Positions 30,222 through 35,122 of a stretch of 64,000 nucleotides of DNA are shown here, piece after piece. The stretch is taken from NCBI GenBank assembly GCA_965223265.1, contig OZ244999.1, forward strand, positions 160,001-224,000. Direction: 5' to 3'. Origin of the DNA: Planctomycetota bacterium. Its GTDB lineage: Bacteria; Planctomycetota; UBA8108; SXIK01. The notes under the pieces were generated by a model. The model saw only the letters and a list, made by a program, of their open reading frames with translations. It made no database searches and was not told the origin of the DNA. The position numbers and the translations under genes are program-made. Numbering within the stretch: the first letter of the stretch is position 1; each line of letters starts with the position of its first letter.

Positions 30222-31367
30222 TCACGTTCCCTTGTACGTCAACAGTGGTCGAAGCCTCCGCACAGCACGCGTGAGCTCGCGCTGAGCGCGCATCACTTTC
30301 TCGATGTCCTTGTAACTGGCTGGCGCTTCCTCCCGCAGCGCCTTCCCGATTCGGTGGTCGAACCAAACACCGCGCATTTGACGTTCTAGATCCGTCGCGC
30401 CGATGGTTCGTCGTGCGTCTGAGCGGCTTAGCTGTCGTCCAGCGCCATGCGAACTCGAAGCGAGGGCTTCGGGACAGCCGCGCCCCTGAACGTGAAAGCT
30501 TGTCGTCCCCATTGATCCCGGAATGATGCCGATCTCGCCTGCTTGAGCGGAGAGCGCTCCCTTTCTGTGCACCCAAAGGTCAGAACCGAAGTGGCGTTCT
30601 CGCTGAACGTGATTGTGATCGCAAGCGATGCGCGACGAAGGGTTGGCGCTCGCTCCGAATAGCTCTCGAACGAGGAGGGTCGCGGCTTCGAGCATACGCT
30701 CACGGTTCGCTGCAGCGTATGCTCGCGCCCACTCGACGTCCCCAAGGTACGCCTGACCCTCGGTTCCCTGCGCATCGAGATGTCGTAGACCGACGGAGTC
30801 CTGCGTTGCGTATTCGAGATGATGCCCGGTGATCGCCTGCCCTACGGCGCGCGAGCCACTGTGGACCATGACCCACAGAGCGTCTTGTTCGTCTGCTTGG
30901 AACTCGAGGAAGTGGTTTCCGCGTCCCAGAGTGCCGAACTGTACGCGCCCGTCGCGATGCTTGAGTCGTTCGAGCCTCTTGTGACTCAGCGGAGCTTCAA
31001 CGAGTGCGGCTGGCAGGCACGCCGGTGCGGTCGAGCCTGAATGTCGACGAGCCGGGACAAGGACGCGGAGGGCATGAAGGATCTGTGCCGCCATGCGTTC
31101 GTTTCGGATGACGTCAGCGCTGCAATTGAACTCGAGAGCGGCCATGCCACAGCCGATGTCGCCCCCGACGGCGTGTGGCAGGAGCCTCGATGAAGTGGCA
31201 ACGACGGCGCCTACGCACACCTCTTCGCACAAGTGCACGTCGGGCATGACTGCAACGCGCTCAACGATCTCAGAGCGCGCGAGTCGATTCAGCGCGCCGA
31301 CGACATCATCGGTTAACGGGGCTGGGAGCCAGGAGTGCAACTTGCGACCGGAGAGTAGACGCGTCAT
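30222..31367 (-). CDS. rtcB: RtcB family RNA ligase (3'-phosphate/5'-OH)
   Basis: MPDVH, GGDIGCG, GTLGRGNHFLE, HSGSR, HNH, HRKGA, PGSMG, SHGAGR (guanylated His), EEAP..YKDI, YKG. Confidence 0.95.
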   Translation of the reverse strand: MTRLLSGRKLHSWLPAPLTDDVVGALNRLARSEIVERVAVMPDVHLCEEVCVGAVVATSSRLLPHAVGGDIGCGMAALEFNCSADVIRNERMAAQILHALRVLVPARRHSGSTAPACLPAALVEAPLSHKRLERLKHRDGRVQFGTLGRGNHFLEFQADEQDALWVMVHSGSRAVGQAITGHHLEYATQDSVGLRHLDAQGTEGQAYLGDVEWARAYAAANRERMLEAATLLVRELFGASANPSSRIACDHNHVQRERHFGSDLWVHRKGALSAQAGEIGIIPGSMGTTSFHVQGRGCPEALASSSHGAGRQLSRSDARRTIGATDLERQMRGVWFDHRIGKALREEAPASYKDIEKVMRAQRELTRAVRRLRPLLTYKGT

Positions 31368-31783
31368 GGTTTCACCTCCGCTGCGGCGCAGTACTCGAAG
31401 CAGAGAAGGGGTGCGCGCTTTCTGTGAATAGCGTTCGCTACTTCGGCACGTAGGCGCACTGAAATCGATTCGAGGACGCTGAGGACGTCACGCGATGCAA
31501 GTGAGGCAGACGGCGAAGCCGGACAGACGACGACTTTCAATCGCGACGCATCCGGCGCAGGTTCGACGCCGGCGACCTGCAGGTCGCGGAGGAGCGACTC
31601 GCGGGTTTCGGCAGCGAGGGCTAAGCCGATCGCGATTGCGGCCTGTTTGCAGAGCTGCTGTGTCTTTCGATTGTCCTTGCGATGGTATTCGTTGTGAAGA
31701 ATCTTGCGCGGATCGACCCCGTCGTCAGGGCCAACCTGGGCGCACAATGCTGCGAGTTCCTGTAGGGAGCGCTTTCTATGCAT
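31364..31783 (-). CDS. Ribosome-binding factor A (RbfA)-like paralog
   Basis: RbfA pattern LLRDLQVAGVEPAPDASRLKVVV...LRAEVANAIHRKRAPLLCF with an extra N-terminal LC...DDGVDPR segment; ATGA overlap with rtcB. Confidence 0.8.
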   Translation of the reverse strand: MHRKRSLQELAALCAQVGPDDGVDPRKILHNEYHRKDNRKTQQLCKQAAIAIGLALAAETRESLLRDLQVAGVEPAPDASRLKVVVCPASPSASLASRDVLSVLESISVRLRAEVANAIHRKRAPLLCFEYCAAAEVKP

Positions 31784-31787
31784 ACAT

Positions 31788-31965
31788 TCCTCTCACGTCG
31801 GCGAGTTGTCTTCAGACAGCTCGCCCGAGTTTTTTCGACAGCTCCCGTATCGACGGTGACACGTGGAGCATGGGCGTGAGAGCCTGCCCGAACACTCGGG
31901 AGATTCTCCGGAGAGGATACAGTGCAATCTCGTCTCGAAGCTGCGGGCGCAGGCTACGGCGAGAC
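31788..31965 (-). promoter_or_regulatory. Putative translational attenuator (anti-SD segments and hairpins)
   Basis: In the mRNA, CUCUCACG (31875-31882) and UCCUCUC (31911-31917) are each complementary to the RBS region CGUGAGAGGA (31788-31797). Hairpin GGCGAGCUGUC-UGAA-GACAACUCGCC at 31800-31825. Confidence 0.55.
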
Positions 31966-32040
31966 GGCAGTCCCTGGACCCGTCCGGGCCAGGCTCGACG
32001 TTGCGGAGTACAGCACGGTGATGATCACAGTGGCTTGCAT
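31954..32040 (-). CDS. Putative leader peptide MQATVIITVLYSATSSLARTGPGTAVSP (28 aa)
   Basis: Perfect AAGGAGG (32047-32053) 6 nt before the ATG; ends CCG TAG; shorter than anything in the supplied ORF track. Confidence 0.65.
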   Translation of the reverse strand: MQATVIITVLYSATSSLARTGPGTAVSP

Positions 32041-32113
32041 AGTCGGCCTCCTTCCGGACGTTTTCGGCGATCAGGTGGATGAGGTGCTAACGCCACCTCT
32101 CAACTCTGCTGCA

Positions 32114-32143
32114 AGTGAACCATCAAGTGCATGCCCGTGTCAA
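32114..32143 (-). promoter_or_regulatory. Possible sigma70-type promoter for the leader-rbfA-like-rtcB unit
   Basis: TTGACA-N18-TTCACT with TG extension. Confidence 0.35.
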
Positions 32144-32197: not shown

Positions 32198-35122
32198 TCA
32201 GATTTCACTCCCCTGCATCAGAAACGCGAACAAGTCACGCAGCTCCTGGCGTGTGAGAACGTTGAGGAGTCCCTGCGGCATGAGAGACTCGGGCGATTCA
32301 GCGTGGAGGAGAATCTGATCGTTTTGGACGACGAACTCCTGACCATCGCTGCCCAGATACGCTTCGGAGCTACCACCCTTCCGCCTTGGTAGTCCGATCT
32401 GCTGTTTGCCGTCACGAGTGACGATAAGCCATGGAGTGTACTGTGGTGCCATCGTGAGGCTCGGCTGAAGGATCGTCTCGAGCAGCCAACGCAGACCGCC
32501 TGCCCGCTCAGCCATGAGGCGCCTTGAGATCTGAGACAGGTCAGGCCCGACCGCCGTTCCTCGCCCGTTGACCATGTGGCACCGTGAACACATGCCGATC
32601 CGTCTGGCGAAAAAAACGCGTTCGCCGGCGGCTGGATCCCCGCTGCCCTCTTCGATCAGTTCCTCCCAGGCTGCGAGATCCTCGGCCGGAGGCCGCGCTC
32701 CCGGCGAACCGTCGAGGAGGCGACGAACCGCTTCACCCGTCATCGCGTCTCGGCTAGCGAGTGAGGTCAAGGAGCGGCGATGGCTCTCCGACAGGTCCAC
32801 TCCGAAGAGGCTTCTGAGGGCTTCGCCGCGGATCACCTTCGATCGATTTTGTGCCATATCCGCAAGCAAGTCTTGGTGTCTTGCGTCGCCGGCGAGACCA
32901 GCGATGGCTGCAGCTCGAACTTCGTCGCTGCGTCGTTTGTCCCGAGCGACACGCGTTAGTGTGTCGTCACGCAATGGCGTCGGAGCGGATGCCAACGTGC
33001 GGACTACTTCGAGCTGCAAGTTGTCACCCGATGATTCGGTGAGTGATTCCGTCAGTGATTCCGCGAGTAACGGGGAGATCTTGGCCGCGAGACCAGGATG
33101 AGCGGGATCGATCAGTCGAAGCGCGAGCCGCCGTATAGGAGCCGGCGCGCTGGCTTCAAGAATCTGTTCGAGAAGCATCGCCGACGAGGGCTGGTCGGTC
33201 GGTTTCTTATCGTCCAGCGAATCGATTGCCGCAGACACGGCGAGGAAGAGGTGGGCATCGAGTTGTTCGTCACGAAAGATCGCCAGCAGCTGCTGCCGAA
33301 AGTCGGCGAGCCTTTCATCGGCGATCCACTTCACGGCAGCGAAGCGTACGCGCGGATCTTGGTCAGCCGTGAGAAAGGGTCCAAGCCTTTCGCGTCGAAA
33401 CGCTGAGCGCAGCTGTGGATTCCGTTTGATCGCCAGAAGTGCAGCGACGATTTGTCTGGGGCTTCCGTCTTCGAGCCCCTGCAGTGAGTCGATCGAGAGG
33501 CGGGAAAGAGCGGTGATCGCGGCGTGAAACAAAAGCGGGTCGTGAGTCGCAATCGCATCGTCGATGACGTTACGGGGCGGCTTCTTGCTGAGGCGCATGG
33601 CCTCGGCTCTTAGCGGTACGGGGATGTTAGACCAATCGTCCCAATCGAGAACGTCGTTATCGACCTGTAGGCGCAACCCAGCCCGCAGCGCGAGCACTCG
33701 AAGCGCCAAGTTCGCATCGCCTTTGGCGGCCGCGGCATAGTCCGTTTGCTCGTCGCTGACTGCGGCCAGAGCCTGCAGCGCTGCGGCACGGGCCCGCGCG
33801 GACGGGTGCGAGCGCAGAGTCTTTCGCAGGAGCTTCCTGCCTTCCTCTGAGAGTGCCAGCGCTCTCGCTGCGCGTTCGCGGGTCTTGCGATCCGCCGTCG
33901 TCAGCGCCGCTTCGGGATTTGATGGCCGCGGGTGCACAGTTGCTGTCGGGCTCGTAGACCACGACCTGATCCTCCAAACACGGCCTTGCTTGTGGAGCTT
34001 GTAGCTGCTCGACACCCAGTCGCTGAAGTAGACGCTGCCGTCTGGCGCGATTGCAAGATCGACAGGTCGAAAGTCGCCACGAGAATGGACAAGCACCTGG
34101 CGCGTCGTGGTCGTTAGGCCGTGGTTTGCGTCTTGGCGGAGCTGATAGTTCTCGATGCGGTGGTCTGCCCAAGACGCGACGAACAGTTGGCCTCGGTACT
34201 CTTCAGGCAACTGATCCGACTCATAGGCGACGACGCTACAGGGCGCTTCGCCGGTTCCCGCCACCATGGGTAGCGTCCCCAGGATGCTCCCGGTCCACGT
34301 TACTAACGGATGCAGCCCCGTGCGGCCGTAGCGGTACTCGTAGCCGTAGTCGCCGCCGTCGACGATCTGAATCAACCGACACGGCGGCGATGAGTCGGGA
34401 TCGTTGTCGGTGCCGAACACGCGTCCGAACGCGTCGACGCAGAGCCCGAACGGGTTCCACCAGCCGGTGGACGTTCGATGCAGATTGCCACCGCCCGCAT
34501 CGATGCGATAGGTACTGCCGCCTTCTCCGCCGCCGCCGAGTTGTTTTCCGTCGGTACCAATCAACGTGTAGTCATGACCGATGTTCTCACCGAGGCCAAA
34601 GTGGAGGTTGCCTGAAAAGTCGAACGCCAAGCCGGAGAGACCGTTGTGCGGGTAGGTGCCAGTCGTGTCGAGGCGGACGATAGCGTCGACGTCGTCGGCG
34701 TGATCGTCGCCGCTCGTGTCGCGCAGCCGATGTACATCCATCCGAGTGGCGACGAACAGTGATCCGTCATCGTGTATGGCGATGTCCATGATGTGAGTGA
34801 AGCCGGCATGGAAGATCGTCCGTTTGTCTGCTCGGCCATCTTCGTCGGTGTCCTCGAGTACGAGAATTCGATCATGTTTCGGGCCGTCGTAGTCGTCAGG
34901 TGGAAAGTGCGTGTGGCTTTCCGCGACGAACACGCGACCACGAGCGTCCACGTCGAGGCCTGTTGGCGTCACGACCTGCGGGTGTTCGGCGAAGAGCTCG
35001 ACGACAAGGCGTTCGTCGGTCGCCTTGGGCTGTGGTCTTTCTTCCTCCGCCATCGATTGAGGCCCAGCAAGCACCATGACGCAGAGGCTCAAAACACACA
35101 TACAGAGCGCGCGGGTGGTCAT
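32198..35122 (-). CDS. PVC-type heme-binding CxxCH protein (beta-propeller dehydrogenase-like + HEAT repeats + cytochrome c)
   Basis: Signal peptide, LEDTDEDGRAD, NPFG, DFRPVD, GDPAAGERVF..CSRCH, VGPDLS, SLMP. Confidence 0.9.
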   Translation of the reverse strand: MTTRALCMCVLSLCVMVLAGPQSMAEEERPQPKATDERLVVELFAEHPQVVTPTGLDVDARGRVFVAESHTHFPPDDYDGPKHDRILVLEDTDEDGRADKRTIFHAGFTHIMDIAIHDDGSLFVATRMDVHRLRDTSGDDHADDVDAIVRLDTTGTYPHNGLSGLAFDFSGNLHFGLGENIGHDYTLIGTDGKQLGGGGEGGSTYRIDAGGGNLHRTSTGWWNPFGLCVDAFGRVFGTDNDPDSSPPCRLIQIVDGGDYGYEYRYGRTGLHPLVTWTGSILGTLPMVAGTGEAPCSVVAYESDQLPEEYRGQLFVASWADHRIENYQLRQDANHGLTTTTRQVLVHSRGDFRPVDLAIAPDGSVYFSDWVSSSYKLHKQGRVWRIRSWSTSPTATVHPRPSNPEAALTTADRKTRERAARALALSEEGRKLLRKTLRSHPSARARAAALQALAAVSDEQTDYAAAAKGDANLALRVLALRAGLRLQVDNDVLDWDDWSNIPVPLRAEAMRLSKKPPRNVIDDAIATHDPLLFHAAITALSRLSIDSLQGLEDGSPRQIVAALLAIKRNPQLRSAFRRERLGPFLTADQDPRVRFAAVKWIADERLADFRQQLLAIFRDEQLDAHLFLAVSAAIDSLDDKKPTDQPSSAMLLEQILEASAPAPIRRLALRLIDPAHPGLAAKISPLLAESLTESLTESSGDNLQLEVVRTLASAPTPLRDDTLTRVARDKRRSDEVRAAAIAGLAGDARHQDLLADMAQNRSKVIRGEALRSLFGVDLSESHRRSLTSLASRDAMTGEAVRRLLDGSPGARPPAEDLAAWEELIEEGSGDPAAGERVFFARRIGMCSRCHMVNGRGTAVGPDLSQISRRLMAERAGGLRWLLETILQPSLTMAPQYTPWLIVTRDGKQQIGLPRRKGGSSEAYLGSDGQEFVVQNDQILLHAESPESLMPQGLLNVLTRQELRDLFAFLMQGSEI

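Follow-up and report, generated by a model that had tools for sequence, protein, structure and literature searches.

How might an operon for RNA repair be induced when its genome keeps the known regulator elsewhere? Bacterial detection of damage to the translation machinery, with induction of RNA repair as the outcome, is known mainly for RtcR. The question is raised by a locus in a planctomycete genome, within a 64,000-nucleotide stretch of contig OZ244999.1 (hereafter, the window), in which a gene for an RbfA-like protein is followed by rtcB and is preceded by an RNA leader whose elements span positions 31788 to 32053. All features of this leader and of the two genes lie on the minus strand. 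A preliminary description of the leader had pointed out a 28-codon upstream open reading frame (uORF) and segments complementary to the ribosome-binding site (RBS) of the RbfA-like gene, and had proposed that a ribosome stalled at the end of the uORF switches the operon on. The observation is confirmed, and the interpretation is partly supported. We consider it moderately probable that 31788-32053 forms the central part of a conserved translational attenuator that depends on ribosomes and controls the RbfA paralogue and, where present, the translationally coupled rtcB. The leader probably switches these genes on when ribosomes work badly; both the direction of the switch and its physiologic trigger are inferred, from modeling and from analogy with other systems. 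Within its own genome alone, the features of the leader are at chance level, and they are convincing because of the comparison with relatives.

The leader and its short reading frame

The elements of the leader are listed below in their 5' to 3' order.

32041-32053, minus strand: segment 1, consisting of the Shine-Dalgarno sequence (SD) of the uORF, AAGGAGG (32053-32047), and the spacer CCGACU; the motif (R)AAGGAGGCCGAC is found in most homologous leaders.
31954-32040, minus strand: the uORF, 28 codons plus TAG, reading MQATVIITVLYSATSSLARTGPGTAVSP*; its ATG, at 32040, comes 6 nt after the SD, and it ends in Pro-TAG (TAG at 31956-31954).
31984-32000, minus strand: segment 2, CGUCGAGCCUGGCCCGG, within the uORF, with the core GAGCC at 31996-31992; predicted to pair with segment 1 or segment 3.
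31931-31966, minus strand: a stem-loop around the last uORF codons and the stop, formed by CGUCUCG (31966-31960) and CGAGACG (31937-31931) with an inner CUGC/GCAG hairpin; part of the minimum free energy (MFE) fold.
31911-31917, minus strand: the first anti-SD, UCCUCUC, which is the 5' arm of a UCUCC/GGAGA hairpin and is complementary to the RBS of the RbfA-like gene.
31887-31900, minus strand: the P2 hairpin, CCCGAGUGUUCGGG, immediately 5' of segment 3, recognized from sequence and fold.
31875-31886, minus strand: segment 3, CAGGCUCUCACG, whose 5' half is predicted to pair with segment 2 and its 3' half with the RBS; it includes the second anti-SD, CUCUCACG (31882-31875), complementary to the RBS of the RbfA-like gene.
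31800-31825, minus strand: the P4 hairpin, GGCGAG...CUCGCC, just 5' of the RBS, recognized from the fold; a hairpin recurs at the same place in relatives.
31788-31797, minus strand: segment 4, the RBS region CGUGAGAGGA of the RbfA-like gene, complementary to both anti-SDs.

The preliminary description was accurate about what can be read at this locus. AAGGAGG, six nucleotides and ATG do open a 28-codon uORF that ends in Pro-TAG; the stem that encloses its last codons and stop, together with the inner hairpin, is predicted by the MFE fold; and both UCCUCUC and CUCUCACG match the RBS as claimed. In the same MFE fold, segment 2 is paired with segment 3.

Comparison at the nucleotide level was impossible, because a search of 40 relatives with the leader and the RbfA-like gene matched the genome of origin alone. 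A search with the RbfA-like protein found relatives in 10 of 61 genomes, and a profile built from nine family members had matches in 50 of the 401 genomes of the phylum, from which 36 non-redundant loci were taken for inspection. RtcB, in a short form, is encoded directly downstream in 17 of these 36 (L004, L005, L013-L023, L028, L038, L039 and L042). A strong SD with a start codon and a short ORF, located 99 to 411 nt 5' of the RbfA-like start, precedes all 17 of the RtcB-linked genes and 5 of the other 19; on inspection upstream of the RbfA-like gene, no such leader was present in the remaining 14 of the 36 loci, none of which is linked to RtcB. At four loci (L008, L026, L027 and L029), the leader stands before an RbfA-like gene that has no RtcB gene after it, and the downstream genes encode a patatin, a DUF938 protein, an SGNH hydrolase and a VTT-domain protein. 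These downstream genes are unrelated, which assigns the leader to the RbfA-like gene rather than to RtcB. Its earlier assignment to an rbfA-like/rtcB operon is thus right as to its position upstream of the RbfA-like gene and too narrow in that it follows this gene with or without RtcB.

An independent scan for the motif AAGGAGGCCGAC-N20-50-TCGAGCCT, in one genome per species, yielded 89 stretches, 80 of which were fetched. An RbfA-like gene lies no more than 1300 nt downstream in 16 of the 80, and these represent Singulisphaera, Isosphaeraceae, Gemmataceae, Phycisphaerae and other Planctomycetota, as well as two metagenome-assembled genomes (MAGs) labeled as relatives of Myxococcota. RtcB comes next in 7 of the 16 loci (two of these being cut by the end of the fetched DNA), and at least 7 of the 16 have no RtcB downstream. 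The two MAGs, L096 (labeled Kofleriaceae) and L112 (labeled 'delta proteobacterium'), carry the leader, the RbfA-like gene and RtcB; the presence of the leader in MAGs labeled outside Planctomycetota could reflect horizontal transfer or a binning error. In total, we compared 35 non-redundant homologous leaders, from Planctomycetota and these two MAGs. One of them, L094, is from Singulisphaera acidiphila DSM 18658, a cultured type strain.

A conserved uORF upstream of homologous genes, which the preliminary description had suggested looking for, was found with signs of translation in all 35 leaders: each has a strong SD, a start codon 4 to 8 nt downstream and a short ORF. That codon is ATG in 23 leaders, GTG in 8, TTG in 3 and ATT in 1, and the length ranges from 8 to 40 codons, with a mode of 18 codons (12 of 35). 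In the first 22 loci, frame 0 gave a length of 8 to 30 codons every time (22/22), versus 0 to 161 codons in the other two frames, for which 11 of 44 readings fell within 8 to 30. Matches to the scanned motif that are not linked to an RbfA-like gene differ in both respects. A start codon 4 to 8 nt past the SD is present in 15 of the 16 RbfA-linked matches versus 9 of the 64 others, and an ORF of 8 to 32 codons in 14 of 16 versus 3 of 64; one of these three, L105, has a family-like uORF and runs off the fetched DNA. Spacing is also shared by many leaders, with GAGCC beginning 33 nt after the A of the start codon in 16 of 35 and the stop following GAGCC by 22 nt in 14 of 35. Finally, the G+C content at third codon positions (GC3) in the 35 leaders is 0.60 in codons 2 to 8 and 0.82 in the rest of the uORF, compared with 0.75 in the RbfA-like ORF, and the value for codons 2 to 8 is below that of the RbfA-like ORF in 30 of 35 loci. 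Given these comparative signs (start, length, frame and GC3), the uORF is probably translated.

Two of the 35 leaders stand out. L102 has ATT in place of the start codon of the others. L058, compared with L039 and L051, is near-identical to L039 and has a small indel that results in a uORF of 40 codons. These may be decaying or variant leaders. In an alignment of 22 leaders, the start codon is mostly followed by C, and at uORF positions +11 to +13 a UG across codons 4 and 5 is nearly invariant; no pairing partner for it was found.

The uORF peptide is not conserved except for Ser-Ser-Leu, the tripeptide that the RNA motif UCGAGCCUC encodes. Between the closely related leaders L077 and L094, and likewise between L020 and L021, nearly all nucleotide differences noted in the uORFs alter the amino acid. 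Because the peptides differ apart from this RNA-encoded tripeptide, what appears to be conserved is the act and extent of translation and not its product. A functional small protein was rejected as an explanation because the peptide sequences are not conserved. Neither a conserved arrest peptide nor a conserved Pro-stop was found in the 35 leaders. The common form of the peptide is '...SSLxxxxG-stop', and the uORF in the window, which reads '...SSLARTG' followed by seven more codons, looks like this usual form read on for 7 codons. We also rejected coupling by termination and reinitiation, because the uORF stop lies 63 to 354 nt 5' of the RbfA-like start in most loci; the exceptions are L027 (6 nt) and L008 (34 nt). 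The A+T-rich L027 has a terminator-like hairpin inside its 30-codon uORF, which is the one ending 6 nt before the RbfA-like start.

Alternative pairings and ribosome position

Four segments recur in the homologous leaders. Segment 1 comprises the SD and start of the uORF, (R)AAGGAGGCCGAC; segment 2, GUCGAGCCUC(G/C), is located within the uORF or at its end; segment 3 has the form (C)AGGCUCUC(AC) or GGCUCCC and often has a GC-rich hairpin (P2) ahead of it; and segment 4 is the RBS of the RbfA-like gene, GUGAGAG or GGGAG. Hairpins equivalent to P2 precede GGCUC in L016, L077, L094, L110 and L126. Complementarity links segment 2 with two partners, segment 1 and the 5' half of segment 3, and links the 3' half of segment 3 with segment 4. 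The central CUC of segment 3 is common to both of its partners, segments 2 and 4.

The register of these helices shifts between lineages. For example, in L020 and L021, GAGAUCAG pairs with CUGAUCUC. Because an approach based on alignment and fixed columns failed with this shifting register, we used permutations of duplexes, in which the own segment pair of each locus was compared with all cross-locus pairs (20000 permutations). The near-duplicate L058 was left out, as were, for pairing 2:3, loci with overlapping windows. Results are given as mean duplex energies and as the number of permutations that were as low as the native set.

Pairing 1:2 (n = 34): native -16.0 versus cross-locus -13.4 kcal/mol; 0/20000 permutations.
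Pairing 2:3 (n = 23): native -16.5 versus cross-locus -14.7 kcal/mol; 4/20000 permutations.
Pairing 3:4 (n = 24): native -14.6 versus cross-locus -12.3 kcal/mol; 0/20000 permutations.
Control pairing 1:3 (n = 23): 8167/20000 permutations.
Control pairing 2:4 (n = 24): 9698/20000 permutations.
Control pairing 1:4 (n = 24): 1696/20000 permutations.

Runs on smaller sets of loci had the same outcome, and in one of these the locus in the window ranked first of 16 for its native 3:4 fit. When each duplex was compared with dinucleotide shuffles in 22 loci, the mean z was -1.47 for 1:2, -1.17 for 2:3 and -0.76 for 3:4, and p was at most 0.05 in 8, 9 and 4 of the 22 loci, respectively. At the locus in the window, 2:3 is the only pairing beyond such shuffles (p = 0.015). 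The full combined motif of the leader occurs once in this genome, at the RbfA-like/rtcB locus. Judged by these sequence comparisons, pairings 1:2, 2:3 and 3:4 covary within loci and constitute mutually exclusive pairings, one of which would mask the RBS. The preliminary description had anticipated covarying stems. This expectation was borne out for CUCUCACG, which as part of segment 3 covaries with the RBS (the 3:4 result above), and not for the stem around the uORF stop, which was not found as a family feature in the leaders of relatives.

The effect of a ribosome on these pairings was modeled with two measures. The coarse measure is the mean unpaired probability over positions -14 to +3 of the RbfA-like start in the presence of a 30-nt ribosome footprint; with the footprint on codons 1 to 4, accessibility rises in approximately 9 of 22 loci. 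The fine measure is the number of expected pairs between named segments in an equilibrium model of 20 loci. In 9 of these 20 leaders, the ribosome-free fold is the 3:4 state, and a footprint on codon 1 or codon 4 removes at least half of the 3:4 pairing and brings 2:3 in six of the nine (L029, L026, L094, L110, L112 and L126). With the footprint on segment 2 or on the last codon, 3:4 returns. The mean number of expected 3:4 pairs is 4.46 in the free RNA, 2.58 and 2.55 with the ribosome at codon 1 and codon 4, 3.89 with it on segment 2 and 4.73 with it at the stop. The free fold of the leader in the window is 2:3 (8.8 expected pairs), with its SD core 0.40 unpaired; this value declines to 0.13 when a ribosome occupies segment 2, and to 0.16 when it occupies Pro28 and the stop. 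In both positions, the model pairs the RBS with UCCUCUC.

Because the modeled footprint swaps 3:4 for 2:3 only at early codons, a ribosome that remains at the uORF's 5' end would open the RBS, and a ribosome further on, or none, would close it. The direction of the switch in the model is thus the opposite of a stall-at-stop trigger, in which a ribosome at the stop had been expected to switch the operon on; at Pro28-stop, the footprint lowers the accessibility of the RBS in the window. A sensor for loss of the anti-SD of ribosomes (MazF type) is not favored, because in the model most typical leaders fold to the off state without ribosome binding.

Taken as a mechanism, these results suggest the following. 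A very strong SD would ensure translation of a short uORF, the peptide sequence of which is irrelevant, and the four segments would pair alternatively as 1:2, 2:3 or 3:4. With no ribosome, or with a ribosome on segment 2 or the stop, 1:2 and 3:4 (or UCCUCUC in place of segment 3) would form, and the RBS would be masked. A ribosome held at the start or first few codons would cover segment 1 and not segment 2, and because this leaves segment 2 free for 2:3, the RBS would be freed. The operon would thus be turned on by ribosomes that load and then elongate poorly, as might result from damaged ribosomes or tRNAs or from inhibitors, and normal translation of the uORF would reset it to off.

A U run follows the last hairpin before the RBS in L094, L077 and L027. 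Some members, of the type of these three, may use transcription attenuation or direct coupling.

Competing explanations

Several results count against the explanation that we favor. The loci are mutually related, and therefore the counts given above are not independent. MAFFT followed by RNAalifold found no consensus structure in 22 leaders, and a P1 helix in fixed columns had 57.9% paired cells compared with 55.4% in shuffles (28 of 500 shuffles as high), a result barely above shuffles because the helix register differs between lineages. Nine of the 35 leaders have the motif UCGAGCCUC/GAGCC in another frame, and codon 4 ends in A or T in 29 of 35. Since some of the conserved uORF bases are held at the RNA level, part of the apparent ORF signal could stem from structure. 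By the coarse measure, the locus in the window is unchanged by the footprint (0.40 to 0.30-0.41), and 11 typical loci show no clear effect; in the fine model, only the six named loci of the nine informative ones switch, and 7 of 20 leaders, including the one in the window, are already in 2:3 without a ribosome. Statistics within the single genome are likewise unhelpful. AAGGAGG followed 5 to 8 nt later by a start codon and an ORF of 8 to 30 codons occurs 37 times, versus 59 times for the control CCTCCTT, and at the locus in the window neither the best duplex between RBS and leader (p = 0.335) nor the duplex between SD and uORF (p = 0.33) is better than dinucleotide shuffles.

The single-genome statistics would also be expected if the ORF and the complementarities had arisen by chance and had no function. 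All comparative results contradict this explanation, as does conservation across 35 leaders, and we give it almost no credence. A structured leader RNA, such as a riboswitch, a thermosensor or the target of a small RNA, with an SD-like arm and an ORF that are incidental, would account for conservation at the nucleotide level inside the uORF and for the covariation of the three pairings. It would not account for a start codon that varies among ATG, GTG and TTG at fixed spacing, or for an ORF length limited in frame 0 only; the fixed-spacing start and the ORF limit are, moreover, absent from unrelated matches to the same motif, and no Rfam family matches. We therefore regard a purely structural role as very unlikely. 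The proposal of the preliminary description, in which a ribosome stalls at termination on Pro-stop in the manner of TnaC, melts the stop stem and frees the RBS of the RbfA-like gene, has points in its favor. The uORF in the window ends in Pro-TAG inside a predicted stem; the last residue before the stop is most commonly Gly, in 14 of 35 leaders, and is Pro in 2; Gly and Pro before a stop slow termination; and the stop keeps a fixed distance from segment 2 in 14 of the 35 leaders. However, Pro-stop as a trigger would apply to those two leaders only, in a family with no conserved peptide and no shared stop stem, and the modeled footprint on the last codon restores 3:4 (4.73 expected pairs versus 4.46 in free RNA) and, in the window, reduces the unpaired SD core from 0.40 to 0.16. 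This proposal now seems distinctly unlikely.

Autoregulation by protein is the other explanation to be weighed. The RbfA-like protein might bind its own leader, for example at the 1:2 helix, and be titrated away by damaged or immature 30S subunits. This idea draws on the resemblance of the 1:2 helix to the helix between SD and anti-SD at the 3' end of 16S rRNA, and of segment 2 (GAGCCUCC) to the 16S anti-SD, CACCUCC. Also consistent with it are the true RbfA ancestry of the family and the fact that the leader tracks the RbfA-like gene and not RtcB (in the four loci of the first set and in at least 7 of the 16 loci found by motif). Autoregulation alone leaves unexplained why the start codon is kept, why ORF length is limited and why GC3 is low in the first codons, and it strikes us as unlikely, but it could act alongside the uORF mechanism.

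We therefore continue to prefer ribosome-dependent attenuation. The attenuator of the preliminary description persists in it with respect to the conserved uORF and the exclusive pairings, and the stall-at-stop trigger and the arrest peptide are dropped. A bolder version, which we regard as doubtful, is that the leader is a sensor of broken ribosomes, and that an RbfA-like 30S-binding factor and an RtcB that reseals 16S rRNA complete a self-contained sensing and repair module. In such a module, subunits that still bear the anti-SD would load on the SD of 8 to 9 nt and, given a 16S decoding center that is nicked or tRNAs that are cleaved, could not elongate. The stuck subunits would hold segment 1 open, 2:3 would form, the RBS would be exposed and healthy ribosomes would translate the RbfA-like protein and RtcB. 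If true, this would be a module parallel to PrfH-RtcB2, but with a translational switch. The leader model is directly testable, because the segments are short and defined and because at least one carrier, Singulisphaera acidiphila DSM 18658, is cultured.

Genomic setting and likeness to known systems

The genes and the putative promoter associated with the leader are as follows.

32114-32143, minus strand: putative promoter read from the sequence, TTGACA (32143-32138), N18 and TTCACT (32119-32114), with a weak -10.
31364-31783, minus strand: RbfA-like gene, 139 aa, a divergent RbfA paralogue (Pfam RBFA, PF02033, 23.4 bits).
30222-31367, minus strand: RtcB RNA ligase gene, 381 aa (Pfam RtcB, 276 bits).

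The upstream neighbor is a gene of 994 aa with DUF7133, HEAT and cytochrome c domains, which ends at 32198 on the minus strand and is separated from the RbfA-like ORF by an intergenic gap of 414 nt. The putative promoter would give an mRNA with about 325 nt ahead of the RbfA-like start. In the 35 leaders, the pattern TTGNNN-N16-18-TANNNT occurs 58 to 131 nt 5' of the uORF start in 23, versus 0 of 35 in a control window and 1.5 predicted from shuffles; the locus in the window is among the 12 of 35 that lack it, and its putative promoter was not flagged by the promoter scan. Ahead of the uORF SD, the 5' UTR contains a hairpin, GAGGUG...CACCUC (32081-32099, minus strand), in which an SD-like arm pairs with an anti-SD-like arm. 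On the plus strand, the P4 hairpin and a T run that extends to approximately 31835 resemble a terminator (an 11-bp stem, then CGAGTTTTTT) antisense to the leader, and no plus-strand gene ends nearby.

The RbfA-like gene scores below the Pfam RBFA gathering cut-off (23.4 versus 34.7 bits). The family profile nevertheless matches the RbfA structure 1kkg (E = 8e-7, positions 43-133), and because it reaches RbfA structures, we consider the gene to be a distant but true relative of RbfA. At its N terminus, the paralogue carries a conserved extension of some 40 aa (LxxLCxExGPDDGxDP...QLC). Elsewhere in the genome, at C1:988493-988804, a canonical RbfA is encoded, with a score of 100 bits. The start of rtcB overlaps the stop codon region of the RbfA-like gene (31367 versus 31364, minus strand). 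The genome encodes three RtcB paralogues; the one made from this gene falls below the cut-offs of all named NCBIfam subfamilies compared, including the PrfH-linked TIGR03073 (144.6 versus 271.8 bits). The top scorer of the three (559 bits) is at C1:2990566-2991873, and a classical RtcR-RtcA-RtcB cluster is at C1:4809646-4813066. A genome-wide search for RtcR had a single match, C1:4809646-4810188, which is beside that other RtcA-RtcB pair, and found no RtcR gene next to the RbfA-like/rtcB operon. The earlier view of an operon with its own leader instead of RtcR is therefore in keeping with the genome, in which RtcR is present only in the separate cluster. The genome has a G+C content of 61%, and its 16S rRNA has a canonical 3' end, ...GGATCACCTCCTTTCT.

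Rfam covariance models had no match at the leader, either in the window (E up to 10) or in 9 related loci (E up to 0.1). A full-text literature search, which included passages of PMC4833913, found nothing on an RbfA-RtcB pair or a leader ahead of it.

On present sequence evidence, the leader would be an attenuator that is independent of peptide sequence, stands ahead of an RbfA paralogue and has no Rfam entry. Its closest counterparts in design are the leader-peptide translational attenuators of erm and cat type (ermC, cat and cmlA). These share with it a short uORF that has its own SD and lies upstream of the regulated gene, alternative pairings of which one would mask the RBS and, as predicted for the leader described here, a choice of fold by ribosome position and a translational output. 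Unlike in erm and cat, segment 1 is the SD and start of the uORF itself rather than a coding stretch, there is no conserved arrest peptide and, in place of a resistance gene, the leader precedes an RbfA paralogue, with or without RtcB. We also know of no drug for the RbfA-like leader, unlike for erm and cat.

The four-segment attenuators of trp and his operons have the same topology of 1:2, 2:3 and 3:4, and the same logic as the modeled leader, in which the absence of a ribosome means off, an early stall means on and read-through means off. They differ in that the leader would act by masking the RBS instead of by forming a terminator (a U run is nonetheless present in L094, L077 and L027), and in that the leader lacks a stretch of regulatory codons specifying a single amino acid. 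Another comparison is with the PA5471 (armZ) leader of Pseudomonas aeruginosa, the uORF of which senses ribosome impairment. As proposed here, that uORF reports impaired translation and induces a response to translation stress, but phylum, cargo, sequence and output differ, and there is no homology.

With respect to cargo, a parallel is the ribosome repair module PrfH-RtcB2 (PMC9304027 and PMC9223846). PrfH-RtcB2 resembles the operon here in that an RtcB paralogue is joined with a small ribosome-binding factor, and differs in that the factor is a release-factor homologue and not a homologue of RbfA; the RtcB in the window is, as noted, under the TIGR03073 cut-off. By analogy, the RbfA-like protein and RtcB may act together in repair of the small ribosomal subunit. 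The operon ties an uncharacterised RbfA paralogue to RtcB, which points to repair or rescue of this subunit.

Control of rtcBA by RtcR and sigma-54 is similar to the leader in that it regulates an RtcB RNA-repair ligase, and unlike it in being transcriptional and protein-based. Because the RtcR-RtcA-RtcB cluster is located elsewhere in the genome, the leader would govern a separate RtcB paralogue. Next to RtcR, it would thus offer a second logic for inducing RNA repair, one that is cis-acting, based on translation and conserved in several planctomycete lineages.

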